From Bacteroidales bacterium (GTDB taxonomy: Bacteria; Bacteroidota; Bacteroidia; Bacteroidales; G963667975), in contig OY764079.1 in the NCBI GenBank assembly GCA_963667975.1, positions 1,428,586 to 1,492,585 of the forward strand: DNA of 64,000 bases, written 5' to 3'. Below the pieces are notes generated by a model. It was given only the letters and a program-made list of their open reading frames with translations. It made no database searches and had not been told where the DNA came from. Of this stretch, positions 36,307-62,387 are shown piece by piece. How positions within the stretch are numbered: position 1 is the first letter of the stretch; every line of letters begins with the position of its first letter. Made by a program: the position numbers and the translations under genes.

Positions 36307-36338
36307 TATTTGAGCTATTTATTTAAAGTATGTAATCT

Positions 36339-37595: not shown

Positions 37596-37603
37596 TACTT
37601 TTG
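37596..37603 (+). promoter_or_regulatory. candidate -7 promoter box
   Basis: TACTTTTG matches TAnnTTTG and lies 39 nt upstream of the ATG at 37642. Confidence 0.35.
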
Positions 37604-37641
37604 TCTTTAATAACTAATTTTATAACCTAAATTTTACATCT

Positions 37642-38406: not shown

Positions 38407-38420
38407 GTGAAATAAACTTA

Positions 38421-38457
38421 AAAAAAACAGCCAATGAATTCCATTGGCTGTTTTTTT
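38421..38457 (+). terminator. intrinsic terminator
   Basis: A 9-bp stem (CAGCCAATG / CATTGGCTG) is flanked by an A7 run and a T7 run. Confidence 0.75.
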
Positions 38458-38530
38458 GTTTATTTTAGCGTAGTTTTTTAATAGTGCAAAGTAATAAATT
38501 CAATATTGCTTTTTTATAAAATTGAATACA

Positions 38531-41559: not shown

Positions 41560-42837
41560 ATGTCTCATAAAATTTGTATGATTGGCCTTGGTTACGTAGG
41601 TTTGCCTCTGGCCGTGGAATTCGCCAAACATTTTTCTGTAATAGGTTTTGATATTAAGCAGGACCGTATTGATGAACTTAACTTAGGTCATGACAACACT
41701 CTCGAAGTAGAGGACGATAATTTACAATCGGTACTGATGGTGGAAATGCCTAAAGATAAAGGCATGTACCTGACCAGTAAACTGGATGAAATTCGTGACT
41801 GTAATATTTATATTGTAACGGTTCCTACTCCAGTTGATAAAAATAACCATCCGGATTTGACTCCACTCATTAAGGCCAGTGAAACCATAGGAAAGGTAAT
41901 TAAGAAAAATGATATTGTAATCTATGAATCAACAGTTTATCCTGGTTGTACAGAGGAAGATTGCATCCCTGTGATTGAACAAACTGCGGGAATGAAATTG
42001 AATGTGGATTTTTATGCAGGCTATTCTCCTGAACGCATCAATCCTGGTGACAAAGAGCATACTGTAACCACCATCCATAAGGTTACTTCTGGTTCAACTC
42101 CTGAAATAGCTGAAGTAGTGGATCAGCTTTACAAAAAGGTGATTAAGGCAGGTACGCACAAGGCTCCAAGTATTCGTGTGGCAGAAACTGCCAAAGTAAT
42201 AGAAAACTCACAGCGAGACATCAATATCGCCTTTGTAAATGAACTTGCCCGTATCTGCGCACATATGAACCTTGATACTCGTTCTGTACTTGATGCTGCC
42301 AGTACTAAATGGAATTTTCTTAAGTTCTCTCCAGGTTTAGTAGGAGGTCACTGTATAGGAGTAGATCCTTACTACATTGCTCAAAAAGCACAAGAAGTGG
42401 GCTATCATCCTGAGATTATCCTTGCTGGACGTCGTATGAATGATGGAATGGGTGCTTGGGTTGCCGCTCAGATTGTAAAATTGATGATTAAGAAAAATTT
42501 ACCGGTAAATCATGCTCCAGTACTTGTTCTAGGAGTTACCTTTAAAGAAAACTGTCCGGATGTTCGTAACACCAAAGTGGTAGACGTTGTAAATGAATTA
42601 CGCCAGTTTGGGTGTAGAGTAGATATTTATGACCCTTGGGCAAACAAAGCAGATGTAAAGCATGAATATGGGGAAGAGCTAATTGAAAAATATAACATGG
42701 AAAATTATACAACCATTGTATTAGCGGTTTCTCATCGCGAGTTCTTAGAAGTAGACTTTTCAAAACGTAAGAAAGAATCTGTTCTTTATGATATAAAGGC
42801 ACTGTTACCAATAGAAATGGTGGATGGCAGATTATAA
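41560..42837 (+). CDS. UDP-N-acetyl-hexosamine 6-dehydrogenase (TviB/WbpO-like nucleotide-sugar dehydrogenase)
   Basis: 425-aa ORF that I judge TviB-like throughout, including IGLGYVGLPLAVEF, YESTVYPGCTEE, GYSPERINPGDK and GLVGGHCIGVDPYY. Confidence 0.85.
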   Translation: MSHKICMIGLGYVGLPLAVEFAKHFSVIGFDIKQDRIDELNLGHDNTLEVEDDNLQSVLMVEMPKDKGMYLTSKLDEIRDCNIYIVTVPTPVDKNNHPDLTPLIKASETIGKVIKKNDIVIYESTVYPGCTEEDCIPVIEQTAGMKLNVDFYAGYSPERINPGDKEHTVTTIHKVTSGSTPEIAEVVDQLYKKVIKAGTHKAPSIRVAETAKVIENSQRDINIAFVNELARICAHMNLDTRSVLDAASTKWNFLKFSPGLVGGHCIGVDPYYIAQKAQEVGYHPEIILAGRRMNDGMGAWVAAQIVKLMIKKNLPVNHAPVLVLGVTFKENCPDVRNTKVVDVVNELRQFGCRVDIYDPWANKADVKHEYGEELIEKYNMENYTTIVLAVSHREFLEVDFSKRKKESVLYDIKALLPIEMVDGRL

Positions 42838-42865: not shown

Positions 42866-44254
42866 ATGAAAGTCAAAACAATTACCTGTATTGGAGCTGG
42901 TTATGTTGGTGGCCCAACAATGGCTGTTATCGCATTAAAGAACCCTCATCTAAAAGTGAATATTGTTGATATCAACCAGGAAAGAATCGAAGCTTGGAAA
43001 ACAGATAATCTGCCGATTTACGAACCTGGATTATTAGAAGTTGTGAAACAGGTTAGAGATGTAAACCTGTTTTTTTCAACGGATATTAATAGAGCGATTA
43101 AAGAAGCTGAGTTGATTTTCTTAAGTGTAAATACTCCAACAAAAACTTACGGTATTGGAAGAGGTAAGGCTGCTGATTTAAAGTACATTGAGCTTTGTGC
43201 TCGTCAAATTGCAGAGCAAGCGAATGGAAATAAAATCATCGTCGAAAAATCAACCTTGCCTGTCAGAACAGCTGAATCAGTTAAGAGGATTCTTTCAAGT
43301 GTGGAAAGTGGATATAAATTTCAAGTATTATCAAATCCTGAATTTTTAGCAGAAGGTACCGCAATTGAAGATTTAATGGCTCCAGACAGAGTTCTTATAG
43401 GTGGTGATCAAAATAAAGATGGATCGGATGCAATCGAAACTTTAGTTCAAATTTATGCAAGTTGGGTGCCTCGAGAAAGAATTATCACAACAAATGTTTG
43501 GTCGTCAGAATTGAGTAAATTGACAGCTAATGCATTTCTCGCTCAACGAATAAGTAGTATTAATGCAATGTCTGCTTTATGTGAGGTTACAGGTGCGGAT
43601 GTGGAGGAAGTTGCCTATGCAATTGGGATGGATTCCCGGATTGGATCAAAATTTTTAAAAGCTTCTGTAGGTTTTGGAGGAAGCTGTTTCCAAAAGGATA
43701 TTCTGAATCTGGTTTATTTATGTGAACATTTTGGTTTGCCTGAAATTGCTTGTTATTGGGAACAGGTAATTTTAATGAATGATCATCAAAAACAAAGATT
43801 CGCACAAAAAATTATTGATACATTGTTTAATACTGTATCTGGTAAAAAAATCGCATTTTTAGGCTGGGCATTTAAGAAAGACACCAATGATACTCGTGAA
43901 TCTGCGGCAATTTATGTAGCGAATATTTTAATGAATGATCAGGCAAATATTTGTGTGTATGACCCACGTGTTCCGGCAGGAGTGATGTATGCAGATTTAG
44001 ATTATTTAGAAACTCGAAAGTCAGAAGAGAACAAGAAGTTACTTCATGTTGTTTCTAATGCCTATGATGCATGTAAAGATGCACATGCAATTGTAGTTCT
44101 TACGGAGTGGGATGAGTTTAAATCTCTTGATTGGGAACGCATCTATAAAGAGATGAAGAAGCCTGCTTTTTTATTTGATGGCAGGTTGATTTTAGATCAT
44201 GAATTTATGAAAAATATTGGATTTGAACTGTTTAGTATAGGAAAAGATAGATAA
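42866..44254 (+). CDS. UDP-glucose 6-dehydrogenase, long eukaryote-like type
   Basis: 462-aa ORF with [22 protein letters not shown] and the catalytic-Cys motif [18 protein letters not shown], which resembles animal and plant UGDH. Confidence 0.9.
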
Positions 44255-44278: not shown

Positions 44279-45208
44279 ATGAAAGCATTTATTTTCCCAG
44301 GTCAGGGATGCCAAAAAGAAGGAATGGGTAAAGATTTATATGAAAACTTCCCTAAAGCAAAGGAACTGTTTGAATATGCAAATGAATTACTTGGAAGAAG
44401 GATATCTGATGTTATGTTTTATGGGAGTGAGTTAGATTTAATGGAAACGAAAAATACCCAGCCATCAGTTTTTTTATATGAGGTAATTTTGGCACTGACA
44501 CAGAACGATTTGCGACCAGATGTTGTCGCTGGACACTCTTTAGGTGAATTTGCAGCATTGGTTGTTAACGGAACACTCAGTTTTGATGATGGCTTAAATT
44601 TGGTTCTTAACCGGGCTTTAATTGCACAAAAAGTTTGTGAAAAATATGACACTGCGATGGGTGCTGTAATTGGATTACCCGAAGACTATATTTCAAGAAG
44701 AATTCAGGAGATTTACAACGAAACAAATGAACCCGTTTATTTTGCAAATTACAATGGCCCTGGTCAAGTAGTTATTACAGGTTCTAGAAAAGGAATAAAA
44801 ATAGCATGTAAAGCATTTAAAGAGGAAGGTGCAAAAAAAGCAATCCCTCTTGCGATAGGTGGATCTTTCCATTCTCCATATATGGAAGAAGCCAGAATTG
44901 AACTCGGTGAAATAATTAAAAAAACGAAATTTAATAATCCTATTTGTCCAATTTACCAATGTGTTGATGCAAAGGCTCATACGAGTCCAGAGGAAATTAA
45001 AAATAACTTGATTGAGCATATTACACACCCCGTTTTATGGACAACGATGACGCAAAATATGGAAACGGATGGAGTTAATGAATATTATGAAGTGGGTACA
45101 GACGATACCCTACAAAAAATAGTGGCAAGAATGTGTCCAGATAAAAAAGTAGATACATTGCTATCAATTCCCCTATATAATGGTTTAATAAAAAATTATT
45201 CACTTTAA
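44279..45208 (+). CDS. fabD: malonyl-CoA:ACP transacylase family protein
   Basis: 309-aa ORF with FPGQGCQKEGMGKDLY and the active-site GHSLGEF. Confidence 0.9.
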   Translation: MKAFIFPGQGCQKEGMGKDLYENFPKAKELFEYANELLGRRISDVMFYGSELDLMETKNTQPSVFLYEVILALTQNDLRPDVVAGHSLGEFAALVVNGTLSFDDGLNLVLNRALIAQKVCEKYDTAMGAVIGLPEDYISRRIQEIYNETNEPVYFANYNGPGQVVITGSRKGIKIACKAFKEEGAKKAIPLAIGGSFHSPYMEEARIELGEIIKKTKFNNPICPIYQCVDAKAHTSPEEIKNNLIEHITHPVLWTTMTQNMETDGVNEYYEVGTDDTLQKIVARMCPDKKVDTLLSIPLYNGLIKNYSL

Positions 45209-45213
45209 AATTA

Positions 45214-45447
45214 ATGATTATGGAACTTAATGAATTTGTACAAGTATTTGCAGAACAGTTTGATGACACTCCTGTAGAAAGTTTTTCCCCATCTACAGTT
45301 TTTATGGAGTTAGAAGAATGGGGTTCGTTGGTTGCCCTTTCAATAATTTCTATGATCGACGATGAATTTGAAAAAAGAGTTACAGGTGCTGATTTGAGAA
45401 GTGTAAAAACGATCGAAGAATTGTATAACTTGATTCTTGCTAAGTAA
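45214..45447 (+). CDS. acyl carrier protein (stand-alone)
   Basis: 77-aa acidic ORF. The candidate phosphopantetheine Ser lies in EEWGSLVALSIISMIDDEF. It is immediately downstream of fabD. Confidence 0.75.
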   Translation: MIMELNEFVQVFAEQFDDTPVESFSPSTVFMELEEWGSLVALSIISMIDDEFEKRVTGADLRSVKTIEELYNLILAK

Positions 45448-45460
45448 TTTGAGCTTAAGG

Positions 45461-45577
45461 GGCTGTTTAAAAAGGCAGAAAATATAAAAAATAGACTTTT
45501 ATTTTGTAATTATTATTATTCTAATTGCAATACTGAATATTGTCGAAGGATATTAGATTTCTGATTTTTAAACAGCC
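45461..45577. repeat. 117-bp intergenic element bounded by 13-bp perfect inverted repeats
   Basis: GGCTGTTTAAAAA (45461-45473) pairs with TTTTTAAACAGCC (45565-45577). It lies in the only sizeable gap (160 bp) of the acyl cassette. Confidence 0.6.
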
Positions 45578-45607
45578 TGATTTTAAAAATATTTAAATCT
45601 CAAGTGT

Positions 45608-46672
45608 ATGTCATATGTAAGTGTAAAAAATGTAAAGATAAAAGGACTGTCTGCTTGTGTACCAGAGAGGGTTGAAGAAAATAGAGATTATGAGTTGATC
45701 CCTAAGGAAGAAATTGAAAAATATATTCAAACAACAGGCGTAGAAAGACGTCACTGTGCAATTCATGATGGCTCAATCTGTACGAGTGATTTATGTCAGA
45801 AAGCAGGTGAAAAACTTTTAGATGACCTTGGGTGGGATAAGTCAGAAATAGATTTATTAGTATTTGTTTCACAATCAGCTGACTATAAGTTGCCTGCTAC
45901 TGCATGCGTACTACAGGATAAGATGGGGCTTCCTACTTCTTGCATGGCGTTTGATATTTCATTTGGATGTTCTGGTTATTTGTATGGGCTTGGTGTAATA
46001 GGAAGCTTATTACAGGGAGGTACTTTTAAGAAAGCATTATTGATGGTGGGAAATACACAATCCGTATTTGCCAGTTATGAAGACAGAAGTATGTATCTGT
46101 TATTAGGCGATGCCGGAACAGTTACAGCGCTTGAGTATTCTCCAGAAGGTGGAGATATAATGGATTTCCATTATATGACAGATGGTTCAGGAAGAGCTTC
46201 TGTAATAGTACCGGATGGAGGAAGCAGGAATCCTGTAAATGAAAAATCATTTATAATGGAAGATTGTGGCGATGGAATTAGACGTACAAGATTGCATGAA
46301 AAAATGGATGGTTTAGAAGTTTTTTCATTTGCAATGGCGAATGTGCCAAAAAGTGTCTCTATGCTTAAAGAAAAGTTCCCTTTTAACGACGAAGAAATTG
46401 ATTACTTTCTGCTTCACCAGGCCAATAAATTTTTATGTGAAAAGTTGAGGAAGAAACTTAAGTTACCTGCAGAAAAGGTACCATATAATTTACATGAATT
46501 TGGAAACACAAGTGCAGCTACAATCCCGTTACTTATGGTTACCAATTTAAAAGAAGAGCTACAGGGAAAAGAGTTAGACTTGATGATGACTGTTATAGGT
46601 GTTGGCTTTTCTTTAGGCTCTGCAAGAGTAAGAATGGGGAAAATTATTTGTTCTGAATTACAAACTTTATAA
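45608..46672 (+). CDS. 3-oxoacyl-ACP synthase III family protein (KASIII-1)
   Basis: 354-aa ORF with a Cys-His-Asn triad context (FGCSGY, LLHQANKF, FGNTSAATIPL). Confidence 0.88.
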   Translation: MSYVSVKNVKIKGLSACVPERVEENRDYELIPKEEIEKYIQTTGVERRHCAIHDGSICTSDLCQKAGEKLLDDLGWDKSEIDLLVFVSQSADYKLPATACVLQDKMGLPTSCMAFDISFGCSGYLYGLGVIGSLLQGGTFKKALLMVGNTQSVFASYEDRSMYLLLGDAGTVTALEYSPEGGDIMDFHYMTDGSGRASVIVPDGGSRNPVNEKSFIMEDCGDGIRRTRLHEKMDGLEVFSFAMANVPKSVSMLKEKFPFNDEEIDYFLLHQANKFLCEKLRKKLKLPAEKVPYNLHEFGNTSAATIPLLMVTNLKEELQGKELDLMMTVIGVGFSLGSARVRMGKIICSELQTL

Positions 46673-46684
46673 TATGTAGTTGTT

Positions 46685-47434
46685 ATGCATAATCCATTTT
46701 CATTAGAAGGCAAAGCGATTTTTATTACAGGAGCTTCTTCTGGTTTAGGAGTAAGTATTGCTCAGGAATGTGCAAATATGGGGTCTCAAATAATTATAAC
46801 AGGGAGAAACCCTGATCGGTTAAATGAAACTTATTTAAGTTTAAGCGGTTCTGGACATAGCCAAATAGTTGGAGATCTTACTCATCAGGATGATATTGAC
46901 TTAATTGTTGATAAACTACCTTGCCTTGATGGATTAGTGCTGAATGCAGGTGTTTTAAAAACCTTACCTGTGAAAAATATTTCTAACGCTGCATTAGAAG
47001 AGGTTTTTAATACAAATATTATTTCATCAATATTGTTGGTTCAGAAATTGCTGAAAAAGAAGAAGATAAATAAGAATGCATCAATTGTTTTTATCTCTTC
47101 GATATCATCTTTCCATGTGAAAATTGGGAATTCTTTGTATTCTGCTACAAAAGGTGCTATTAATTCATTTATGAAAGTACTGGCGCTTGAGTTGGCCTCA
47201 CAGAAAATTACAGTTAATAGTATTCAACCTGGGTTTATTAAAACCAGAGCATTAGATAGCGGAATAATAACAGAAGAACAATTAGAAAGTCATTTTAAAA
47301 TTTATCCACTTGGTATAGGAAAACCATCAGACATTGCATATGCGTGTATTTATCTTTTGTCAGATGCAGCTAGCTGGGTTACCGGTAGCGTTTTTACAAT
47401 TGATGGAGGCGTTACTATAAATGGTGGACATTAA
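46685..47434 (+). CDS. short-chain dehydrogenase/reductase, FabG-like (SDR-1)
   Basis: 249-aa ORF with TGASSGLG, NAG and YSATKGA motifs. Confidence 0.88.
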   Translation: MHNPFSLEGKAIFITGASSGLGVSIAQECANMGSQIIITGRNPDRLNETYLSLSGSGHSQIVGDLTHQDDIDLIVDKLPCLDGLVLNAGVLKTLPVKNISNAALEEVFNTNIISSILLVQKLLKKKKINKNASIVFISSISSFHVKIGNSLYSATKGAINSFMKVLALELASQKITVNSIQPGFIKTRALDSGIITEEQLESHFKIYPLGIGKPSDIAYACIYLLSDAASWVTGSVFTIDGGVTINGGH

Positions 47435-47443
47435 AAAAAAGAT

Positions 47444-48076
47444 ATGAAGAATTTAATTATTATTGGTGCGGGCAATTTTGCAAAAATTCTTTACGAATAT
47501 GCATTGGTAAGCCCCGATTGTAATGTAAAATGGAAAGTAAAAGGATTTATTGATCCAGACATTCATTCATTAGATAATGATCCGGAATTACCACAGGTAC
47601 TCTCTTCAGTTGAAGACTATGACGTATGTGAAGATGATTTATTTATATGTTCATATGTTAATCCTAATGATAGAGAGAAAAGTATCAATATTATCAAATC
47701 CAGAGGTGGAAAGTTTGTGAACCTGATACATCCTACTGCAAATATCAACAGAAGGTCAGTTTTAGGAGAAGGTATTTTTATAGGTGCTTTTACCACATTA
47801 TCTGTAAATACAGTGATAAATGATCATGTGATTATTCAGGATCATTGCAATATTGGTCATGATTCATCTATTGGTAGCTTTTCCCATTTATATGTTAGAT
47901 CTACAGTCTGTGGGAAAAATAATATTGGTAATAAAGTAGCTCTATATACATGCTCTGTAATTTATCCATTAATTAAAGTGTGTGATAGTTCAATAGTAGG
48001 CGCAGGAAGTGTTGTTATGAGAACAGTTAAGGAAGGGACAACAGTTATTGGAAATCCTGCCAAAAAAATGGAATAA
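47444..48076 (+). CDS. NeuD/PglD-family hexapeptide-repeat sugar acyltransferase
   Basis: 210-aa ORF with an N-terminal Rossmann-like LIIIGAGNFAKILYEY followed by a left-handed beta-helix repeat region. Confidence 0.85.
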   Translation: MKNLIIIGAGNFAKILYEYALVSPDCNVKWKVKGFIDPDIHSLDNDPELPQVLSSVEDYDVCEDDLFICSYVNPNDREKSINIIKSRGGKFVNLIHPTANINRRSVLGEGIFIGAFTTLSVNTVINDHVIIQDHCNIGHDSSIGSFSHLYVRSTVCGKNNIGNKVALYTCSVIYPLIKVCDSSIVGAGSVVMRTVKEGTTVIGNPAKKME

Positions 48077-48093
48077 TTAAAAAAGACATAAAA

Positions 48094-48498
48094 ATGCTGA
48101 AAATTGGAGATTCTACGGAAGAGAAAATAAAGTTTACAAAGCAGGAAGTAGTCGATTTTGTGAATCTAATTGGAGATCCGAATCCTGTGCATTTAGATGA
48201 AGAATATGCAAAAAACTCTTACTTTAAAAGATTGGCTGTTCAGGGAATGCATGCAGGATCAAGCTTTTCCAGAGTAATTGGTGCTTATTTTCCAGGAGAA
48301 GGCAGTATTAATATGTATAGAGAGTTTACGTTTATAAGGCCTGTTTTTATTGATGAAGAATACACTATGGCTTTTAAAATTATAGATGTAAATAAAGAAA
48401 CGAATGTTGGTACAATAAGATGTAAATTGATAAATCCACAAGGGAAAATTTGTATTGATTGTACTACGAAAATTAAAAATACAATACAATTTATTTAA
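48094..48498 (+). CDS. MaoC-like (R)-specific enoyl hydratase/dehydratase (hotdog fold)
   Basis: 134-aa ORF with the hydratase motif GDPNPVHLDEEYA. Confidence 0.85.
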   Translation: MLKIGDSTEEKIKFTKQEVVDFVNLIGDPNPVHLDEEYAKNSYFKRLAVQGMHAGSSFSRVIGAYFPGEGSINMYREFTFIRPVFIDEEYTMAFKIIDVNKETNVGTIRCKLINPQGKICIDCTTKIKNTIQFI

Positions 48499-48512
48499 TA
48501 AAATAACACCAT

Positions 48513-49571
48513 ATGGCATTTCTTGAAATTAAAAATGTTGCCTTAAGAGGTGTAGCTGCATGTGTGCCGGCTAAAACCGTTGAAACAAAGGATCTTTCAG
48601 TATTCAAAAAAGATGAAGCGGAAAGATTTACAAAAACTACAGGTATTGAGCGACGCAGAATTGTTGATAATGGTGTTTGCACGTCTGATCTTTGTTTAGC
48701 TGCTGCTGAAAAATTAATTCAGGAGCTACATTGGGATAAATCAGAAATAGATGCATTAATATTTGTTTCAAATACACCTGATTACAGATCCCCGGCAACA
48801 TCTTGTATTCTTCAAAATAGAATGGAATTACCGACTTCATGCCTGACATTCGATATTTCTACAGTATGTGCAGGTTTTCTACAAGGAATTGTAGTGGTGT
48901 CCAGTATATTGTCTTCTGGTACAATAAAAAAAGCATTGCTTCTAGTAGGAGATACAAATTCTCTTACATCCTCTCCAGAAGATAAGTCACGTTACCCGTT
49001 ACTTGGAGATGCCGGAACAGCTTCGGCTTGGGAATATGACGAAACAGCAGATAAAATTTATAGTAATCTATTATCGGATGGTTCATGCTATAAATTTGTA
49101 GGTAGCCCATATAGTGGTTTTCGAAATCAACCCACTCCGGAATCTTTTGTTGTTCAAGATGCGGGAGAAGGAATTAGGAGAGCTCCTATTCACGGAGTTA
49201 TGGATGGAATGGAGGTCTTTTCTTTTGCTATATCAGAATGTCCTAAGGCATTAAAATCTTTGTGCGAACATTACAATATTGATATGCACTCAGGTGTCGA
49301 TTATTATTTGTTCCATCAGGCAAATATGAAGATAAATTCAACTATAATGAAGAAGTTAAAACTTCAAGAAAGTAAAATCCCATCTAATATTAAAGATTTT
49401 GGCAATACAAGCTGTGCAGCAATTCCTCTTTTGATGGTCACTAACATCAAAGAAGAACTTAAAACGCTGGAATTATCTCATATGTTATCTGCTATTGGTT
49501 CAGGATTTGTTTGGGGAAGTATTTATCTTAAAACGAAAAATATAGTTTGTCCGGATCTTTTAGAATTATAG
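48513..49571 (+). CDS. 3-oxoacyl-ACP synthase III family protein (KASIII-2)
   Basis: 352-aa paralog of the ORF at 45608. Triad contexts are STVCAGF, YLFHQANMK and FGNTSCAAIPL. Confidence 0.88.
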   Translation: MAFLEIKNVALRGVAACVPAKTVETKDLSVFKKDEAERFTKTTGIERRRIVDNGVCTSDLCLAAAEKLIQELHWDKSEIDALIFVSNTPDYRSPATSCILQNRMELPTSCLTFDISTVCAGFLQGIVVVSSILSSGTIKKALLLVGDTNSLTSSPEDKSRYPLLGDAGTASAWEYDETADKIYSNLLSDGSCYKFVGSPYSGFRNQPTPESFVVQDAGEGIRRAPIHGVMDGMEVFSFAISECPKALKSLCEHYNIDMHSGVDYYLFHQANMKINSTIMKKLKLQESKIPSNIKDFGNTSCAAIPLLMVTNIKEELKTLELSHMLSAIGSGFVWGSIYLKTKNIVCPDLLEL

Positions 49572-49594
49572 TGGTTGAAATAAATAAATAAATC

Positions 49595-50350
49595 ATGGAA
49601 TACAATCCATTTTCTTTAAAAGATAAAACAATACTTATTACCGGAGCATCCTCTGGAATTGGGAAAGCTGCTGCAATTGAATGCTCCAAGGCTGGAGCTA
49701 GATTGATAATTACGGGTCGGGATGTTGAAAGACTAAATGGTACTTTTTTAGCATTAAATGGTCAGGGACATATGCAAATAACATCTGATATATCTGAAAA
49801 CGATGGGATTGACAAGTTGGTAGATTTTGTTCCTGAATTAGATGGCATGGTAAGTTGTGCCGGCACGGCACGGTATTTATTGACGACTTTTATCAATGAA
49901 AAGGAACTAAATAATACCTTGAGAATTAATACAATCACACCAATTTTGCTTACACAGCGATTGATGAAAAATAAAAAAATAAAAAAATCAGCTTCTTTGG
50001 TTTATGTTTCTTCCGTTGCTGGAAATGAAGTTACTACAGTGGGTTTGGCGATGTATGCAACATCAAAAAGTGGATTAAATGCCTTCGTAAGACATGCAGC
50101 AATAGATTTTGCTTCAAAAAATGTAAGATGTAACAGTGTAAATTTATCCCGGGTTTTTACACCGTTGATTGCTTCGGGAATTATGACGGATGAAAGTCAA
50201 GTTAAAGAAGATTTGAAAGATTATCCTCTTAAAAGGTATGGTCAGCCTGAAGAAATTGCATATGGGATAATTTATTTATTGTCAAATGCAAGTTCTTGGG
50301 TTACGGGAACTTCATTGTTGATAGATGGAGGTTTTTCTCTTAAAAGATAA
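49595..50350 (+). CDS. short-chain dehydrogenase/reductase, FabG-like (SDR-2)
   Basis: 251-aa paralog of the ORF at 46685. Both begin NPFSL..K.I.ITGASSG.G. It carries YATSKSG. Confidence 0.88.
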   Translation: MEYNPFSLKDKTILITGASSGIGKAAAIECSKAGARLIITGRDVERLNGTFLALNGQGHMQITSDISENDGIDKLVDFVPELDGMVSCAGTARYLLTTFINEKELNNTLRINTITPILLTQRLMKNKKIKKSASLVYVSSVAGNEVTTVGLAMYATSKSGLNAFVRHAAIDFASKNVRCNSVNLSRVFTPLIASGIMTDESQVKEDLKDYPLKRYGQPEEIAYGIIYLLSNASSWVTGTSLLIDGGFSLKR

Positions 50351-50368
50351 TCTGTAAAAATAATTTAA

Positions 50369-51058
50369 ATGCTGAATATAACAAGGTTAGTTAATTGCCC
50401 GGTTCCTTCGAATTGTTATATAGTTTCGAGTAACGTAAATAATTCCTGCATAATCATTGATCCTGGTATTGAAGATTGTATTGAACTGATTTCAATATTG
50501 AAAAAAAATCAGCTTTCTCCCGAGTATATTATTTTAACACATGAACATATTGATCATATTGTCGGTATAAACAAGCTAAAGGAAAGCTTTGATATAAAAT
50601 TAGTAACCTCTGCCCAATGTGACCAAAATATAACATCTTCAAAATATAACTTATCCGGCTATTCTGAGAAATATGATGAATATATTGATTTTCCAGCTTC
50701 TGATATAATATTGGAGGATATTAATTATTCATTAAACTGGTGTAATTACAAACTGAAATTTACAAAAGCTGAAGGCCATAGTCTGGGATCTATAATTCTT
50801 AATATTGATAATAATTTATTTACAGGAGATACTTTATTAAAGGGATATAAAACAAATACATCATTTCCGGGAGCCTCTAAGGAAAATCTTTTACATACTT
50901 TAGAAGATATTATAAGTCAATATAATACACTAACAACGATGGTCTATCCAGGTCATGATGATCCTTTCTATTTACATGAAGTTGAACAAGATGTTAGAAA
51001 CCAGATAATTGAACTAAGGTCGAAAATAAATAAAAAACTTAAAAAACTGGTTGAATAA
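50369..51058 (+). CDS. MBL-fold metallo-hydrolase (glyoxalase II-like, possible thioesterase)
   Basis: 229-aa ORF with the HxHxDH motif (THEHIDHIVG). Confidence 0.8.
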   Translation: MLNITRLVNCPVPSNCYIVSSNVNNSCIIIDPGIEDCIELISILKKNQLSPEYIILTHEHIDHIVGINKLKESFDIKLVTSAQCDQNITSSKYNLSGYSEKYDEYIDFPASDIILEDINYSLNWCNYKLKFTKAEGHSLGSIILNIDNNLFTGDTLLKGYKTNTSFPGASKENLLHTLEDIISQYNTLTTMVYPGHDDPFYLHEVEQDVRNQIIELRSKINKKLKKLVE

Positions 51059-51071
51059 AAAATAGAAGAAT

Positions 51072-51482
51072 ATGGGTATCTCGCATATTGAGCATATTGG
51101 AATTGCTGTTAAGTCTCTTGATGATAGCATTCCTGTTTTCGAAAATTTATTAGGAGTAAGGTGTTATGCCATTGAAGAGGTAAAGGAACAATGTGTTAGA
51201 ACAGCTTTTTTTCTGATTGGAGAAACCAAAATTGAATTATTGGAATCTACTTCTTCAGAAGGTCCAATAAGTTCTTTTGTGGAAAAAAATGGTGTGGGCA
51301 TTCACCATATTGCCTTTTGTGTTGATGAAACCAATAGCGCTTTATCATCTGCAAAGGAAAATGGATTTAAATTAATTGATAAAGTTGCAAGAAAAGGAGC
51401 TGAAAATATGAATATAGGATTTTTAAATCCACGATCAACCTTGGGGCTTCTTATAGAGTTTTGTTCAAAAGATAAAGCTTAG
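51072..51482 (+). CDS. mce: methylmalonyl-CoA epimerase (VOC family)
   Basis: 136-aa ORF with HIEHIGIAVKSLDDSIPVFENLLG, KIELLE, GIHHIAFCVDE and LIEFC, the typical MCE pattern. Confidence 0.75.
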   Translation: MGISHIEHIGIAVKSLDDSIPVFENLLGVRCYAIEEVKEQCVRTAFFLIGETKIELLESTSSEGPISSFVEKNGVGIHHIAFCVDETNSALSSAKENGFKLIDKVARKGAENMNIGFLNPRSTLGLLIEFCSKDKA

Positions 51483-51559: not shown

Positions 51560-52570
51560 ATGCTGAGTAATAAATCTATATTAATTACTGGAGGTACTGG
51601 CTCTCTTGGTAAGGCTTTGACTAAAACAATATTGGAAAAATGGCCCGACGTAAAACGACTTGTAATTTATTCACGCGATGAGCAGAAACAATTTGTAATG
51701 GATCAGGAGTATCCTCATTCCAAATACCCACAAATTCGCTTCTTTATTGGCGATGTGAGAGATAAAAGTAGACTAGTACGTGCATTGAGTGGCATAGATT
51801 ATGTTATACATGCAGCTGCAATGAAACATGTTCATATAGCAGAGTATAACCCTACAGAGTGTGTGCAAACTAATATTGGAGGTGCTCAAAATGTAATAGA
51901 AGCTTGCCTTGATACAGGAGTTAAAGCTGTTGTAGCTCTTTCTACAGATAAAGCTTGTGCTCCGATAAATCTTTACGGTGCAACAAAACTTACATCTGAT
52001 AAACTTTTTGTTGCAGCAAATAATTATAAAGGGAATAATCCTATAAAATTTTCCGTAGTAAGATATGGAAATGTTATGGGATCTAATGGCTCTGTAATTC
52101 CTTTTTTTATCAATAAAAAAAAGGAAGGTGTGATTCCTATAACGGAACCTAATATGACTCGTTTTAATATTCCAATTCATGAAGGTGTTGAAATGGTTTT
52201 ATTTGCATTAGAAAATGCGTGGGGCGGAGAAATCTTTGTTCCTAAGATTCCTTCTTATAGAATTATGGATGTTGCAAAAGCAATTGCTCCCGAATGTGAA
52301 CATAGAATAATTGGTATTCGGCCAGGTGAAAAAGTTCATGAAGAAATGATTACAGCATCAGATGCTTTTCATACATATGATATTGGTAACTATTATGCAA
52401 TATTGCCCCAAAAACCGACGTGGAAATTAGAAGATTTTATTAGATCTTATAATGCTAAAAAAGTACCGGAGGGATTTCATTATAGCTCAGGTGAGAACTC
52501 CGAATGGGAAACTATTGATGAACTTAGAAGAAAAATTAAGGAATTTGTAGATCACACATTTGAAGTTTAA
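51560..52570 (+). CDS. pseB: UDP-N-acetylglucosamine 4,6-dehydratase (inverting)
   Basis: 336-aa ORF with ILITGGTGSLGKAL, IYSRDEQKQ and YGATKL. It is followed by pseC. Confidence 0.88.
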   Translation: MLSNKSILITGGTGSLGKALTKTILEKWPDVKRLVIYSRDEQKQFVMDQEYPHSKYPQIRFFIGDVRDKSRLVRALSGIDYVIHAAAMKHVHIAEYNPTECVQTNIGGAQNVIEACLDTGVKAVVALSTDKACAPINLYGATKLTSDKLFVAANNYKGNNPIKFSVVRYGNVMGSNGSVIPFFINKKKEGVIPITEPNMTRFNIPIHEGVEMVLFALENAWGGEIFVPKIPSYRIMDVAKAIAPECEHRIIGIRPGEKVHEEMITASDAFHTYDIGNYYAILPQKPTWKLEDFIRSYNAKKVPEGFHYSSGENSEWETIDELRRKIKEFVDHTFEV

Positions 52571-52574
52571 AAAT

Positions 52575-53726
52575 ATGAAAAATATACCATATGGCAGGCA
52601 ATATATTACAGAAGAGGATATTGCAATAGTTGTTGAAACGCTTAAGTCTGATTTTTTGACTCAAGGGCCTCGTATTAAACAATTTGAAGATGCCTTTGCT
52701 GAGTATTGTAATTGCAAATATGCAGTAATGGTAAGTAATGGCACAGCTGCACTTCATTTAGCAGCAATGGCTCTTGGTATTAAACCAGGTGATAAAATAA
52801 TTACGACACCTATCACATTTGTTGCAAGTGCAAACGGCTTTAGATATTGTGGAGCCGATATTACATTTTGCGATATTGATCCCAGAACATACCTACTTGA
52901 TTTAAATAAGTTGGAAGAATTATTAGCTACGTCCCCAAAAGGAACATACAAGGCTGTCGTTCCTGTTGATTTTGCAGGATATCCTATCGATGTGGAACGC
53001 TTACGTGTAATTGCTGATAAGTATGGTTTGGCAATAGTCGAAGATGCTTGCCATGCTCCCGGAGCCTTTTTTTATGATGGAAAAAGGGAGAGACAAATAG
53101 CAGGGAGCAGTAATTATTCTGACATGACCGTCTTCTCTTTTCATCCTGTAAAACATATTGCAACCGGAGAAGGTGGTGCTATTGTGACAAATAATGAGGA
53201 ATTATACAAAAAACTATTGCTTTATAGAACTCATGGGATTACAAAAAATCCGGATGAACTTGAGCAAACAGATGGTGGGTGGTATTATGAGATGCAAGAA
53301 TTGGGATATAATTATCGTATTACAGAAATTCAGGCAGCTCTAGGTATCTCTCAGCTAAAACGTTTGGAATGGAGTGTCGAAAGAAGAAATGAGATTGCAA
53401 GTAAGTATACGAAAGCCTTTGAAGGTACTTCTGTAAAAGCACCTTTCATACAAACAGGTATTCGACATGCTTTTCATTTATATGTTGTACAAGTAGAGAA
53501 ACGAAAAGAATTGTATGAATATTTGAAAGCTCATAATATTTTCTCACAGGTGCTTTATATTCCTGCACATTTAATGCCCTACTATCGCCAATTTGGCTGG
53601 AAACAAGGAGATTTTCCGATTGCCGAAGATTATTATAACCATTGCCTGAGTTTGCCAATGTATCCTTCATTGACAAATGAAGAACAAGATTATGTAATTG
53701 AAAAAATCATAGAATTTATTAATTAA
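52575..53726 (+). CDS. pseC: UDP-4-amino-4,6-dideoxy-N-acetyl-beta-L-altrosamine transaminase
   Basis: DegT/DnrJ/EryC1 family ORF starting MKNIPYGRQYITEEDI, with FHPVKHIATGEGG (PLP Lys). The TTG at 52560 in the ORF track overlaps pseB, so the ATG at 52575 is preferred. Confidence 0.88.
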   Translation: MKNIPYGRQYITEEDIAIVVETLKSDFLTQGPRIKQFEDAFAEYCNCKYAVMVSNGTAALHLAAMALGIKPGDKIITTPITFVASANGFRYCGADITFCDIDPRTYLLDLNKLEELLATSPKGTYKAVVPVDFAGYPIDVERLRVIADKYGLAIVEDACHAPGAFFYDGKRERQIAGSSNYSDMTVFSFHPVKHIATGEGGAIVTNNEELYKKLLLYRTHGITKNPDELEQTDGGWYYEMQELGYNYRITEIQAALGISQLKRLEWSVERRNEIASKYTKAFEGTSVKAPFIQTGIRHAFHLYVVQVEKRKELYEYLKAHNIFSQVLYIPAHLMPYYRQFGWKQGDFPIAEDYYNHCLSLPMYPSLTNEEQDYVIEKIIEFIN

Positions 53727-54589
53727 TGAACTTGACCAGTAAATTAATAATAGGGACTGTCCAGTTTGGATTAAACTATGGGGTTAATAATCAGGGAGGT
53801 AAGGTGCTACAGAGTGAGGTGAATTCTATATTATCTTATGCTGTTACAAAGGGTGTTGATATGCTTGATACCTCTTATGCCTATGGTTCAAGCGAGATTG
53901 CGATTGGTGAAGCTTTGAAGCAAAATTCGATGAGGTATAATATCGTTTCAAAGTATCCCCGATCAGAAAAAAGTGTTTTTGCAATTTTTGAAGAGTCTCT
54001 CAATCGATTGAATCAAACTAACTTATATGGTTATTTGATTCATCATTTTGATTTTTATCAATCAAATCCTCATATATGGACTGATATGCTTAAATTAAGG
54101 GATAATCAAAAGGTTGAAAAAATAGGATTCTCACTTTATACGATTGATCAGTTGCTTTTTTTGCTGAATAATAATGTTGAATTCGATCTTTTGCAGATTC
54201 CATACAATATTTTTGATAGACAATTTGAGGCTTTTTTCCCTGAATTAAAAAAAAGAGGGGTTGAGATACATACCCGATCAGTTTTTCTTCAGGGATTATT
54301 TTTTAAAGATACAGTTACCTTAAGTGAGAAATTGGAACCTCTCAAATATTACCTGGATATGCTTCACAAATATTGTAATGATAATGATTTTGGAGTGGAA
54401 AAATTGGTTTTAAATTATGTAGTTAACAATCCATATGTTGATAGGGTTTTAGTGGGCCTGGATAATTTAGAACAGCTTAAAAAGAATATTTCTATTTTGA
54501 ATTTAGGTGTTTCTCAATATGATATAAATTTTATAGATTCGTTGCATATAAAAGAAAAGGAGTTACTTAATCCTGTTAATTGGAATTAG
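53726..54589 (+). CDS. aldo/keto reductase
   Basis: 287-aa ORF with a GTVQFGLNYG start and an AKR fold pattern (DTSYAYGSSE). Confidence 0.8.
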   Translation: MNLTSKLIIGTVQFGLNYGVNNQGGKVLQSEVNSILSYAVTKGVDMLDTSYAYGSSEIAIGEALKQNSMRYNIVSKYPRSEKSVFAIFEESLNRLNQTNLYGYLIHHFDFYQSNPHIWTDMLKLRDNQKVEKIGFSLYTIDQLLFLLNNNVEFDLLQIPYNIFDRQFEAFFPELKKRGVEIHTRSVFLQGLFFKDTVTLSEKLEPLKYYLDMLHKYCNDNDFGVEKLVLNYVVNNPYVDRVLVGLDNLEQLKKNISILNLGVSQYDINFIDSLHIKEKELLNPVNWN

Positions 54590-54592
54590 ATT

Positions 54593-55378
54593 ATGAATGT
54601 AATTGAAAGTTTCTCCCTGAAAGGGAAAGTTGCTATTATAACTGGTGGTGCGGGGCATTTAGGCACCGCTATGTCTGAAGCTTTAAATGAAGCTGGAGCC
54701 GTAGTTGCAGTGATTGAATTATCTCAGGAGAAATTTGATGAGAAATTTGCCGGAAAAGAAAATTATTTTTTTGTACAGGGTGATATTTCTGATACAGAGA
54801 ATATTAAGAAATGTTACCAGACTGTATTTGATAGATATGGTCGTATTGATGTATTAATAAATAATGCGGTTTATTTAAAGGGAGGGGGATGTTTACCAGA
54901 GCAAATTACAGATGAGATGTGGGCAATAAGTGCCGATGGCGTTTTAGGAAGCGTTTTCCGTTGTATAAGAGAGATAATTCCATATATGGGAAAAAATGGT
55001 GGATCTATTGTAAATATTGCTTCTATGTATGGTGTAGTCATTCCTGATCTGTCTATGTATAATGGAGCATGCAGCCCTTATTTAAATCCAATTAATTATG
55101 GCGCATTAAAAGCGGGAGTAATACAGTTGACAAGATATTTTGGAGCTTATCTGATATCTAAAGATATAAATGTTAATTGCGTAACACCGGGTACATTTCC
55201 ATCACCAAAGGTGCAGGAAAATGTAGAATTTGTCGAAAGATTGTCAGGTAAAAATCCTGCCAACAGAATTGGTAAGCCGGAAGATCTAAAAGGAGCAATA
55301 CTGTTTCTTTCATCAAATGCTTCAAATTATATTGTTGGCCAGAATATTATCATAGATGGGGGATGGACTTTAGCTTAG
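54593..55378 (+). CDS. SDR-family oxidoreductase
   Basis: 261-aa ORF with TGGAGHLG, NNAV and YGALKAG motifs. Confidence 0.85.
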   Translation: MNVIESFSLKGKVAIITGGAGHLGTAMSEALNEAGAVVAVIELSQEKFDEKFAGKENYFFVQGDISDTENIKKCYQTVFDRYGRIDVLINNAVYLKGGGCLPEQITDEMWAISADGVLGSVFRCIREIIPYMGKNGGSIVNIASMYGVVIPDLSMYNGACSPYLNPINYGALKAGVIQLTRYFGAYLISKDINVNCVTPGTFPSPKVQENVEFVERLSGKNPANRIGKPEDLKGAILFLSSNASNYIVGQNIIIDGGWTLA

Positions 55379-55418
55379 AAATTTATATTAACAATAGTGA
55401 TATGTAAAACTATTTAAA

Positions 55419-56435
55419 ATGGAGTTTAGGATAGGTGATAAAACGATTAACGATAATAATTTATATTTTATCGTTGAAGAAGGGCAGGCAAATCAAGGTG
55501 ATTTGAATATTGCTCGGAAAATGATTGAGCTCGCTAAGGATACCGGGGCGGATGCGATTGAGTTTCAGTTAGCAATTGCGGATGATTTCTATATAAGTTC
55601 ACATCCTGTATATGAAAGATATAAGAAAATCGAATTACCATTACAGCATATGGAAAACATTATACATTATGCTCATGAGTGCAAAATCGATTTTATTGCA
55701 GCATCATTAAGCCATAATCTAATTAAATATTTGGTAGACTTTGGGTGTGATGCGTTTAATATAAATGCATCAGATATTAATAATCCATTTATTGTTGATG
55801 AGGTTTGTAAATCTGAATTACCTTTTTTTGTAAGCTTACCACTCGCAAATGAATCTGAAATAGATTGGATTAATAATAGAATTGAAAAAAGAAATGTAAA
55901 TAACTTTACGTTTCTTCATGGGCAGCATTCAATGGCAAGCGGTGTTGATGGTGTTATGCCTGAACATACAAGTTTAGGTTATATAAAGACATTAAAGAAT
56001 AGATATAAAAAACCAGTAGGTTATATAGATCATACTCCTGATATTTGGATGCCGGCATGTGCAGTAGCTTCTGGTGCTAATATTATTTCAAAACATCTTA
56101 TTATTGATAGAGAACTTAAAGGGCCTGATTGGAGAATATGTCTTGAACCGAGTGAAATGAAAGAAGCAATAAATAATGCGAGAAAGATAAATAAAAGCAT
56201 AAGTACGGTTGATAAAATTTTGGCTCCAGGTGAAAATATTGATATCTCTATCATGCGTAGAAGTATTGTATTTAAAAGAGATTTACCGAAAGGTTCTGAA
56301 ATATCAATTGAGGATATTGAATTTAAAAGACCAGGGACAGGTATTGCTCCGAGTGAATATGATTCGATTTTAGGTAAGAGATTAAGTGAAAGTGTAGTAA
56401 AAGATGATATCTTACTGATGAATAATTTATATTAA
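55419..56435 (+). CDS. divergent NeuB-family (sialic-acid-synthase-like) protein with a C-terminal SAF domain
   Basis: 338-aa ORF with NeuB layout but altered motifs: IVEEGQANQGD versus the usual AE.G.NHNG, and FLHGQHS versus LLHC.S.YP. It keeps GYIDHT and ISKHLIID, and has a SAF-like tail. Confidence 0.8.
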   Translation: MEFRIGDKTINDNNLYFIVEEGQANQGDLNIARKMIELAKDTGADAIEFQLAIADDFYISSHPVYERYKKIELPLQHMENIIHYAHECKIDFIAASLSHNLIKYLVDFGCDAFNINASDINNPFIVDEVCKSELPFFVSLPLANESEIDWINNRIEKRNVNNFTFLHGQHSMASGVDGVMPEHTSLGYIKTLKNRYKKPVGYIDHTPDIWMPACAVASGANIISKHLIIDRELKGPDWRICLEPSEMKEAINNARKINKSISTVDKILAPGENIDISIMRRSIVFKRDLPKGSEISIEDIEFKRPGTGIAPSEYDSILGKRLSESVVKDDILLMNNLY

Positions 56436-56452
56436 TATAATTACATAAAATT

Positions 56453-57241
56453 ATGGATTTATACTTAAAGGATAGGGTTGCGATAATTGGAGGTAGTAGT
56501 AAAGGACTTGGGAAAGCCTGTGCTTACAAGCTTGCTTGCGAAGGCGCTAATATTGTACTATGTGCTAATGATTATGATTCTCTTTGTAGAACAGAATCTG
56601 AAATACGTTTATTAGGAGTTGATGTATTACCGTTGATGGTAAATATGTCATCGAAAAATGATAATGAATTCATTGTTAATGAGACAATTAAAAAATTTGG
56701 AAAGATAGATATACTTGTTAATAATTCAGGAGGACCAAAGCCTGGTGCTTTTTTTGATATAAATGAAGAAGATTGGGCAAAAGCATTTGAAGATGTTCTG
56801 CTTTATGCTGTTCGAATGATTAATTTGGTGGCTCCTTACATGAAAGAAAATAATTGGGGGAGAATTGTTAATCTAACTTCATTAACAGTTAAAGAGCCAG
56901 CTCCATCGCTTATTCTTTCTAATGTTTTTAGAACAGGAGTAGTTGCAATGGCAAGGAGTTTGTCGAAAGAATTAATTCGGCATAATATAACAATAAATAA
57001 CATTTGTCCGGGAGCTTTTAAAACAGAAAGAGCAATAGAACTCATGCAAGTAGCTGCAGATAAGCAGAATAAAAGTATTGAGGAAATTGAAAATAATGCA
57101 ATAAGTAAAATGCCGTTAGGACGGTATCAACATCCCAATGAGCTAGGCGATTTAGTAGCTTTTCTTTCATCTGAATTGGCAAAGGGAATAACGGGTACTA
57201 CTATACAAATCGACGGAGGTATTTTTAATGGGCTGCTTTAA
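56453..57241 (+). CDS. SDR-family oxidoreductase (FabG-like)
   Basis: 262-aa ORF with IGGSSKGLG and NNSGG motifs. The usual catalytic Tyr position reads SNVFRTG, so it is atypical. Confidence 0.8.
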   Translation: MDLYLKDRVAIIGGSSKGLGKACAYKLACEGANIVLCANDYDSLCRTESEIRLLGVDVLPLMVNMSSKNDNEFIVNETIKKFGKIDILVNNSGGPKPGAFFDINEEDWAKAFEDVLLYAVRMINLVAPYMKENNWGRIVNLTSLTVKEPAPSLILSNVFRTGVVAMARSLSKELIRHNITINNICPGAFKTERAIELMQVAADKQNKSIEEIENNAISKMPLGRYQHPNELGDLVAFLSSELAKGITGTTIQIDGGIFNGLL

Positions 57242-57262
57242 AAATGTATATATTAAGTAATT

Positions 57263-58237: not shown

Positions 58238-58270
58238 AAATATTCATACTGTTGCTTTAAAACAGTGTCT

Positions 58271-62357: not shown

Positions 62358-62387
62358 ACGAATAATATTTTATAAAACATAGTTTAT

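Follow-up and report, generated by a model that had tools for sequence, protein, structure and literature searches.

The window analysed here is a stretch of 64,000 nucleotides from the genome of an uncultured Bacteroidales bacterium (assembly GCA_963667975.1, contig OY764079.1, positions 1,428,586 to 1,492,585 of the forward strand). Ten genes at 44279 to 51482 lie in it between genes for two UDP-sugar dehydrogenases and pseB, and a preliminary description made from the sequence had read them as a self-contained, acyl carrier protein (ACP)-dependent cassette building a short acyl chain for a pseudaminic acid (Pse) glycan. All ten open reading frames (ORFs) are present, co-directional and on the plus strand. 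Families were assigned by Pfam and NCBIfam profile scans (bit scores and model cutoffs in brackets), and motifs were read from the sequence. Loci of relatives are numbered below with the prefix L. One genome per species was scanned with a sequence pattern and with tblastn, using an alignment of 3-ketoacyl-ACP synthases III (KASIII) as the query. Feature counts refer to the best 80 of at least 569 loci, with ORFs labelled by BLASTP against the window proteins, and are lower bounds.

The first cassette gene encodes FabD, malonyl-CoA:ACP transacylase (44279..45208; TIGR00128 269.3, cutoff 260.9), with GHSLG and GSFHS motifs, and is followed by the gene for a dedicated ACP of 77 amino acids (45214..45447; PF00550, PP-binding). 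KASIII-1 (45608..46672; ACP_syn_III and ACP_syn_III_C) precedes SDR-1, a FabG-like ketoreductase of the short-chain dehydrogenase/reductase family (46685..47434; adh_short_C2/KR), a two-domain left-handed beta-helix (LbH) acyltransferase of the NeuD/PglD/VioB type (47444..48076) and a 134-amino-acid hot-dog protein, predicted to be a MaoC/PhaJ-type (R)-specific 3-hydroxyacyl-thioester dehydratase (48094..48498; PF01575). Next come KASIII-2 (48513..49571; ACP_syn_III and ACP_syn_III_C) and SDR-2, a second FabG-like ketoreductase (49595..50350; adh_short_C2/KR). The last two genes encode a glyoxalase II-like hydrolase of the metallo-beta-lactamase (MBL) fold, a putative thioesterase (50369..51058; PF00753), and a methylmalonyl-CoA epimerase (MCE)-like VOC protein (51072..51482; TIGR03081 126.3, cutoff 114.95). 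The tight packing first described holds for intergenic gaps of 5 to 23 nt but not between the ACP and KASIII-1 genes, where the spacer measures 160 nt. On the same strand, the upstream flank consists of genes for a TviB-like UDP-GlcNAc 6-dehydrogenase (41560..42837; NF011729 553, cutoff 592; TIGR03026 393, cutoff 190) and a UDP-glucose 6-dehydrogenase, Ugd (42866..44254; TIGR03026 343), and the cassette is followed by pseB (51560..52570; TIGR03589 509, cutoff 408) and pseC (52560..53726; TIGR03588 497, cutoff 424).

Both duplications noted in the preliminary description are genuine: KASIII-1 and KASIII-2 are 49% identical, and SDR-1 and SDR-2, each with YxxxK, are 45% identical. Cys112, His244 and Asn274 (E. 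coli FabH numbering) are invariant in both window KASIII proteins, in both KASIII proteins of a Flavobacterium psychrophilum-labelled locus (L074) and, by alignment, in 19 KASIII homologues. The ACP site reads EEWGSL, and the serine of (E/D)EW[GSD]SL is invariant in 18 cassette ACPs. KASIII-1 and KASIII-2 fall below the cutoffs of the FabH models TIGR00747 (190 and 179; cutoff 292.1) and NF006829 (225 and 216; cutoff 249). The nearest structure to KASIII-1 is 4efi, followed by FabH enzymes. Among the KASIII matches in the PDB with E < 1e-10, 4efi and FabH-type enzymes come first and PqsD, OleA-like, ZhuH-like and CorB ketosynthases lower, and none was recognised by name as DpsC or CerJ; a DpsC/CerJ-type acyltransferase role of the pair is unsupported, as both proteins keep Cys-His-Asn. 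All condensing enzymes of the cassette are of the KASIII type, and no KS-alpha/KS-beta (CLF) heterodimer of a type II polyketide synthase (PKS) was found in it.

FabD, ACP, KASIII, ketoreductase and dehydratase, the parts of a predicted line resembling type II fatty acid synthase (FAS), are therefore all encoded within the glycan operon with intact catalytic motifs, as first proposed. Calling the cassette self-contained overstates the case, however: neither the cassette nor ten other window ORFs scanned include a phosphopantetheinyl transferase, and the ten cassette genes include no enoyl reductase, elongating KAS I/II or FabZ.

Condensation rounds and predicted product

A simpler cassette lies at the end of capsule loci in Odoribacter laneus and Parabacteroides faecis, in the order Bac_transf, LbH, FabD, ACP, KASIII, SDR, MBL, DegT. 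Its KASIII (64 to 71% identical, the O. laneus protein being 71% identical to KASIII-1), FabD (51 to 75%), ACP (56 to 59%) and SDR (54 to 55%) are orthologous to the first set of the window, and an MBL gene is present. Unlike the window, these cassettes have a single KASIII/SDR round, lack MaoC, MCE and Pse genes, and carry before FabD an LbH of another lineage (31 to 34% identical to the window LbH). Their expected product is a 3-hydroxybutanoyl group. Because the first sets are orthologous, the window looks like this core with a second KASIII/SDR round and a dehydratase. KASIII-1, the orthologue of the one-round KASIII, likely catalyses the first condensation. Orthologues of KASIII-2 (55 to 86% identical) were found only where the contig encodes a KASIII-1 orthologue as well, and KASIII-2, a paralog confined to two-round cassettes, likely catalyses the second condensation.

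On the model of F. psychrophilum, a C6 chain would be expected from two KASIII enzymes. In the MaoC protein, the hydratase-2 motif DxNPxH (GDPNPVH) retains its Asp and His, aligned with Aeromonas caviae PhaJ, and the nearest structures to the protein are A. caviae PhaJ (1iq6) and human HTD2. A. caviae PhaJ prefers C4 to C6 substrates. An active dehydratase in a line that lacks an enoyl reductase may yield either 3,5-dihydroxyhexanoyl or a variant of the hydroxyhexenoyl type.

The sequence evidence leads us to hold, with moderate confidence, that the ten genes form an ACP-bound, type II FAS-like line whose short, most likely C6, oxygenated chain would become an N-acyl group on an amino sugar of a Wzx/Wzy-dependent glycan, the likeliest acceptor being the 4-amino group of the PseC product (N7 of pseudaminic acid). 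In the pathway that we infer from the genes, FabD would load malonate onto the cassette ACP, KASIII-1 would condense acetyl-CoA with malonyl-ACP, and SDR-1 would reduce the product to 3-hydroxybutanoyl-ACP. KASIII-2 and SDR-2 would perform a second condensation and a second reduction, and the PhaJ-like MaoC would dehydrate at one stage, giving a 3,5-dihydroxyhexanoyl-type or a mono-unsaturated hydroxyhexenoyl chain. An acyl-ACP-dependent transferase would then place the chain on a nucleotide amino sugar, with the LbH protein as the family-consistent candidate and a PseH-like GNAT as the alternative. The glyoxalase II-like MBL and the MCE-like VOC protein would serve as a chain-editing or thioester-clearing pair.

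Acceptor sugar and candidate transferases

The cassette lies directly 5' of pseB-pseC, and PseC is the sole aminotransferase in the 23-kb operon; the approximately 4 kb recovered past Wzy adds no other DegT. PseC, Wzx and Wzy are encoded in the same strand run as the cassette. Following the cassette, the gene order is PseB, PseC, aldo/keto reductase (AKR), SDR, NeuB-like synthase, SDR, cytidylyltransferase, PseG-like hydrolase (58265..59245; TIGR03590 140, cutoff 153.6), PseH-like GNAT (59242..59880; TIGR03585 76.9, cutoff 93.1), PseI (59870..60877; TIGR03586 452, cutoff 340), Wzx flippase and Wzy polymerase (together 60900..63677; PF01943, PF04932), all on the plus strand. The PseG-like and PseH-like proteins score under the cutoffs but are the best and only matches to their models.

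A second cassette-Pse junction occurs in a diverged metagenomic Pse operon (L097/L098), where the cassette lies between the PseH-like GNAT and PseI genes: PseC, AKR, SDR, cytidylyltransferase, PseG, MBOAT, a 309-amino-acid protein, PseH-like GNAT, cassette, PseI, Wzx, Wzy. That cassette reads FabD, ACP, KS1, KR1, LbH, MaoC, KR, KS2, MBL (KS and KR denoting the KASIII and SDR genes) and is 54 to 70% identical to the window in ACP, KS1, KR1, LbH and KS2, 53 to 54% in FabD and 37 to 40% in MaoC and MBL. This junction is independent and uses another insertion point, which argues for a functional link between cassette and Pse genes. The MBOAT (AlgI/DltB-like, 484 amino acids) and the 309-amino-acid protein, which has no Pfam match, occupy 3829 to 6210 of L097, between PseG and the PseH-like GNAT; they may be an O-acylation pair.

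Elsewhere the cassette stands beside other amino-sugar genes. It lies between FdtA-FdtA-GNAT and DegT in four loci (L008, L009, L013 and L100), and DegT directly follows it in L012/L139. It is thus a portable unit that has been joined to several amino-sugar pathways.

The nearest structures to the LbH protein are VioB, PglD and PerB, followed by LpxD and LpxA, and its catalytic His aligns with that of PglD; the TIGR03570 pass is marginal (161.9, cutoff 160.8) and the PglD_N Pfam match weak. The substrates that VioB, PglD and PerB N-acylate are in each case 4-amino-4,6-dideoxy sugar nucleotides, the class to which the PseC product belongs. Furthermore, LpxD and LpxA provide a precedent for the use of acyl-ACP by LbH enzymes. 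On this family regiochemistry, we favour the LbH protein as the probable transferase, with the GNAT as a serious rival.

Several points weigh against the proposed pathway or parts of it. KASIII enzymes classically prime from acyl-CoA, whereas the pathway assumes that ACP-bound 3-hydroxybutanoyl primes the second round; the exact product, moreover, depends on when the dehydration takes place. Both Pse-linked loci retain a PseH-like GNAT (TIGR03585 76.9 and 80.5, cutoff 93.1), which makes one transferase more than the single free amine of the pathway would call for. The LbH lineage also occurs in FdtA/DegT (3-amino sugar) loci, and LbH similarity does not track sugar context: the window protein is 70% identical to that of L008 (Fdt) and 54% to that of L097 (Pse), while the L097 protein is 67% identical to that of L013 (Fdt). 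LbH similarity was consequently discarded as a guide to the acceptor. Finally, the locus runs beyond the window and the 4 kb recovered, which leaves room for another acceptor sugar.

The first of two alternatives raised by these points is that the PseH-like GNAT moves the ACP-borne chain to the Pse precursor and that the LbH enzyme acts on another acceptor, performs NeuD-like O-acylation, or is responsible for C4 transfer while the GNAT transfers C6. Two-round cassettes are always accompanied by a PseH-family GNAT of a type that tracks the sugar, usually directly before FabD: the PseH-like type with Pse (L097, where a 53% orthologue of the window GNAT lies directly upstream of FabD) and a distant relative, GNAT188 (TIGR03585 E = 2e-5), with FdtA (L008, L009, L013, L100). 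PseH-family GNAT genes stand beside the ACP gene in LbH-free cassettes (L017, L056, L084, L086 and L141, with L035, L039, L047 and L052 as further cases), and a GNAT directly adjoins the ACP in 8 of the 80 loci. Equivalent FabD-ACP-SDR-KS-KS-MCE-MBL cassettes carry an LbH with an upstream DegT (L140, L142) or a GNAT188-type protein with FdtA (L141), and this alternation of LbH and GNAT (about 180 to 190 amino acids) between DegT and FdtA loci looks like a natural transferase swap matched to the acceptor sugar. In addition, the window GNAT does not reach the PseH cutoff. However, it is encoded 7.7 kb from the cassette, in the canonical order pseG-pseH-pseI, where an ordinary acetyl-CoA-dependent PseH would be expected, and the LbH is the sole transferase in most cassettes (34 of 80 loci by direct adjacency). 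To our knowledge, no GNAT of the PseH family has been shown to use acyl-ACP. We regard transfer by the GNAT as rather unlikely. The initial claim that the LbH enzyme transfers the chain fits the match between the acceptors of its solved relatives and the PseC product, but the LbH may not be the sugar-specific transferase: the association of GNAT genes with two-round cassettes and the indifference of LbH similarity to sugar context count against it.

Under the second alternative, the cassette decorates a non-Pse amino sugar made outside the recovered region, and adjacency to pseB reflects shuffling of capsule loci. Cassettes 68 to 86% identical to the window for most genes (MBL 47 to 49%) do lie beside FdtA/DegT (L008, L012/L139, L013), the locus extends off the window with the downstream 4 kb only incompletely covering it, and even the closest genome (L011) differs locally, without Ugd. 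Against this stand the two cassette-Pse junctions, which are independent and of which that in L097/L098 lies within the Pse operon itself, the position of PseC as the only aminotransferase within 23 kb of operon, and the fit of its product to the regiochemistry of the solved LbH relatives. Decoration of a different sugar is accordingly judged unlikely, and the Pse precursor is retained as the probable acceptor.

The Pse operon itself contains additional genes (53726..58237, plus strand), encoding the AKR, an SDR, a second NeuB-like synthase, another SDR and an atypical CTP_transf_3 cytidylyltransferase. The second synthase is nearer by score to NeuB than to PseI and under both cutoffs, and the cytidylyltransferase, of 324 amino acids with a 70-amino-acid N-terminal extension, matches Pfam CTP_transf_3 and no PseF model in NCBIfam. 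L097 retains the AKR and first SDR and lacks the second synthase and second SDR. The extra genes may represent a second nonulosonic acid branch or a Pse-modifying branch.

The MBL and MCE-like proteins

The solved proteins nearest to the MBL protein are thioester hydrolases of the glyoxalase II and YcbL types, in keeping with the thioesterase role first suggested for it, which remains a prediction. The HxHxDH motif is kept (HEHIDH), and the score against the GloB model TIGR03413 is 56.7 (cutoff 200.8). The protein may therefore act like a thioester hydrolase without being GloB.

The MCE-like protein matches solved epimerases (3oa4 and human MCEE, E = 5e-17). Four relatives of about 70% identity were sampled, and all four are encoded in ACP/KASIII cassettes: three directly beside an MBL gene (P0293 of cultured Ancylomarina salipaludis, P0250 and P0279) and the fourth (P0247, L139) 83 nt downstream of one. 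By locus, the VOC and MBL genes adjoin in L140 (A. salipaludis), L141 and L142 and are separated by 38 nt in L096 and 83 nt in L139. Both orders occur, MCE then MBL in L096 and MBL then MCE in the window. Neither the window copy nor any of the four relatives has a methylmalonyl-CoA mutase or decarboxylase context, and none of the four, sampled with recent duplication in mind, is a housekeeping MCE copy. The two genes may constitute a conserved two-enzyme submodule, and we favour a role for the pair in editing or clearing pathway thioesters.

The preliminary description had instead proposed a methylmalonyl supply and a possibly methyl-branched chain, with the MCE providing (2S)-methylmalonyl-CoA from which FabD and KASIII build. 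The MCE-like protein does score above the equivalog cutoff for MCEs and align with solved ones, and many Bacteroidales make methylmalonyl-CoA in propionate fermentation. However, GHSLG and GSFH[ST] motifs mark malonyl specificity in PKS acyltransferases, and FabD carries them unchanged whether or not its cassette includes an MCE, which speaks against a methylmalonyl extender. The occurrence of all four relatives near an MBL gene likewise points to a functional VOC-MBL pair rather than to precursor supply. Methyl branching is therefore very unlikely, and that part of the initial proposal is left without support.

Distribution and comparison with known systems

At least 569 stretches of species-representative genomes encode relatives. 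The hosts are mostly Bacteroidota (Bacteroidales, Flavobacteriales, Chitinophagales and Mucilaginibacter), with a few Chlorobiaceae, Treponema and Chitinivibrionia, and in nearly all loci examined the relatives are embedded among glycan genes (Wzx, glycosyltransferases, DegT, Bac_transf). An ACP gene lies beside KASIII in 75 of the 80 loci, and a NeuD/PglD-type LbH is present in 49 (directly adjoining the ACP in 34), a DegT aminotransferase in 42, two or more KASIII in 38, the initiating transferase Bac_transf in 34 and a PseH-family GNAT in 15. The remaining components are less frequent: MBL in 14, FabD in 8, MaoC in 5 and MCE-like in 2. The cassette type is thus ordinary in Bacteroidota, and the full ten-gene version is rare. 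The order FabD, ACP, KS1, KR1, LbH, MaoC, (KR), KS2, (KR2), MBL is found again in L008/L093, L009, L012/L139, L013, L095, L096 and L097/L098, and its recurrence in independent genomes and metagenomes shows that the arrangement is not due to chance.

Larger sets exist. Treponema primitia (L010) and a Phocaeicola metagenome-assembled genome (MAG; L051) each have three KASIII and a MaoC, with three SDRs in L010 and two in L051, a set that hints at chains beyond C6. The L010 locus further encodes, adjoining the ACP, a 603-amino-acid protein fusing Fer4 and FrhB to a hexapeptide domain.

That the cassette is ordinary fatty acid or lipid A machinery without a link to the sugar genes is effectively refuted by gene context: FabD matches at equivalog level and both KASIII match FabH models, but the KASIII scores (190 and 179) are far under the FabH cutoff of 292, the ACP site EEWGSL is atypical, elongating KAS I/II, enoyl reductase and FabZ are lacking, and the relatives lie in glycan loci.

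The closest relatives with the same cassette and Pse genes are a Bacteroidales MAG chromosome (L011, OY781965.2) and a JGI metagenome contig (L092), 91 to 100% identical to the window in cassette proteins and 87 to 100% in downstream genes. In both, TviB is followed directly by FabD, with no Ugd between. The absence of Ugd at such high cassette identity indicates strain-level variation in gene content at the cassette border. The 160-nt spacer between the ACP and KASIII-1 genes (45448 to 45607) also varies. It holds an inserted element of about 100 nt (45461..45577, not assigned to a strand), bounded by perfect 13-bp inverted repeats, GGCTGTTTAAAAA at 45461 to 45473 and TTTTTAAACAGCC at 45565 to 45577. 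L011 and L092 share the element, whereas the orthologous spacers in L012 and L008 lack it. It folds better than shuffled sequences (z = -3.3). No Rfam match to it and no second copy within the window were found, and scans of the spacer for promoter and terminator consensus gave background levels. These results, and the limitation of the insertion to one strain lineage, speak against a regulatory RNA; the element may be a small insertion resembling a miniature inverted-repeat transposable element or an internal regulatory hairpin.

The operon is headed by a 177-amino-acid ORF (40924 to 41457) without Pfam or NCBIfam match, 59% identical to an ORF at the same position in L008, after a NusG-like gene; it is therefore a leader gene conserved in these loci, possibly a regulator. 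Just 5' of the glycan locus are four co-directional ORFs (35587 to 39304), two with sub-threshold Pfam matches to outer membrane beta-barrels, one with DUF3575 and one with none, and an AIR-synthase-related protein is encoded on the opposite strand (39398 to 40438). The rest of the window carries housekeeping genes, e.g., the dcw and Suf clusters.

In general terms, transfer of an ACP-bound short oxygenated chain to a glycan sugar as its N-acyl group, probably on Pse, is a likely function of the cassette. The N-acyl groups of surface amino sugars act as dominant epitopes that affect serotype, phage recognition and immune recognition, and most known ones, e.g., 3-hydroxybutanoyl, are assumed to derive from the CoA pool. 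A private acyl line on an ACP beside the sugar genes has been proposed once, for a fish pathogen and from correlation, and is not known to have been reconstituted. Compared with the preliminary description, the present analysis adds a Pse link that is seen in two lineages, a VOC-MBL pair that recurs, the choice between LbH and GNAT, and cultured hosts. A broader reading, which we advance only tentatively, combines a polyketide-like hydroxylated, possibly unsaturated C6 chain at N7 of Pse, built on a private ACP, with VOC-MBL editing and with a family that is a large source of N-acyl diversity. We know of no nonulosonic acid described with such a C6 chain at N7. If this reading is true, the VOC-MBL pair performs an undescribed editing of ACP or CoA thioesters, e.g., epimerisation followed by selective hydrolysis, that controls which chain reaches the sugar, and the family is a large and as yet unexplored reservoir of N-acyl diversity for capsules of Bacteroidota, including human gut species. 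The questions thereby framed are which transferase family reads acyl-ACP, how the second round is primed and what the VOC-MBL pair does. Related cassettes occur in cultured Odoribacter laneus, Parabacteroides faecis, Butyricimonas synergistica, Bacteroides timonensis, Bacteroides luti, Ancylomarina salipaludis and Mucilaginibacter, and the frequency of the family in cultured gut and environmental Bacteroidota therefore offers tractable organisms in which to test the chemistry.

Known systems resemble the cassette to different degrees. In Vibrio cholerae O1, the rfbK-O tetronate genes form an ACP-containing acyl module beside perosamine genes. In Aeromonas group II flagellin glycosylation islands, the genes for an ACP and for a 3-oxoacyl-ACP reductase are flanked by pse genes (PMC7874193). 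Both modules share with the window an ACP and a 3-oxoacyl-ACP reductase, located in pse or perosamine loci and thought to build a non-acetyl acyl group, but they differ in activating an acid through AMP-ligase/LuxE, in using LuxC and in lacking KASIII, FabD, MaoC, MBL and VOC. LpxD and LpxA are LbH enzymes that transfer 3-hydroxyacyl groups from ACP to a UDP-sugar amine or hydroxyl and match the window LbH detectably, whereas their N-terminal domains are different, their long chains come via housekeeping AcpP, and their product is a lipid, not a decorated glycan. PglD, VioB and PerB (2npo, 3bss, 7txp, 4ea7) share the two-domain architecture, the aligned catalytic His and 4-amino-4,6-dideoxy acceptors; they use acetyl-CoA as donor, whereas the donor of the window LbH is predicted to be a C4 to C6 acyl-ACP, and their sequences resemble the window LbH only remotely (best E = 1e-17). 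A literature search on the enzymology of acyl-ACP-dependent PglD-like transferases or on Bacteroides cassettes returned nothing, and no enzymology came to light for the F. psychrophilum, V. cholerae O100 or Aeromonas acyl genes either.

The closest precedent is the O-polysaccharide of F. psychrophilum, which contains Qui2NAc4N with an N-3,5-dihydroxyhexanoyl group (Cisar et al. 2019, PMC6519341). Correlation of genes with structure led to the assignment of wfpC-G to this group, namely two 3-ketoacyl-ACP synthases, an O-polysaccharide-specific ACP, a ketoreductase and a PglD homologue predicted to transfer the chain from ACP to a UDP-amino sugar (PMC6519341). A 2026 preprint makes the same assignment and describes more ACP/KASIII sets in other serotypes. 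Vibrio cholerae O100 carries the same dihydroxyhexanoyl group, and a Tenacibaculum O-antigen paper makes no mention of such acyl genes. The combination, unrecognised in the preliminary description, thus follows a logic already proposed (PMC6519341) and belongs to a widespread family.

A five-gene set of the wfpC-G kind is present in L074. The window resembles it in the dedicated ACP, two FabH-like KASIII with Cys-His-Asn, an SDR ketoreductase and a NeuD/PglD-type LbH, in its setting within a Wzx/Wzy glycan locus with a DegT-family aminotransferase, and in two condensations that would lead to a C6 hydroxy-acyl amide. The sequences are distant, however (window versus L074: KASIII 37 to 47% identical, ACP 36%, LbH 27%), the sugar pathway there is of the bacillosamine type rather than Pse, and the window adds FabD, a second SDR, MaoC, MBL and the MCE-like VOC protein. 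The window cassette is a richer version of a cassette type proposed in print and widespread in Bacteroidota, not a categorically new one.

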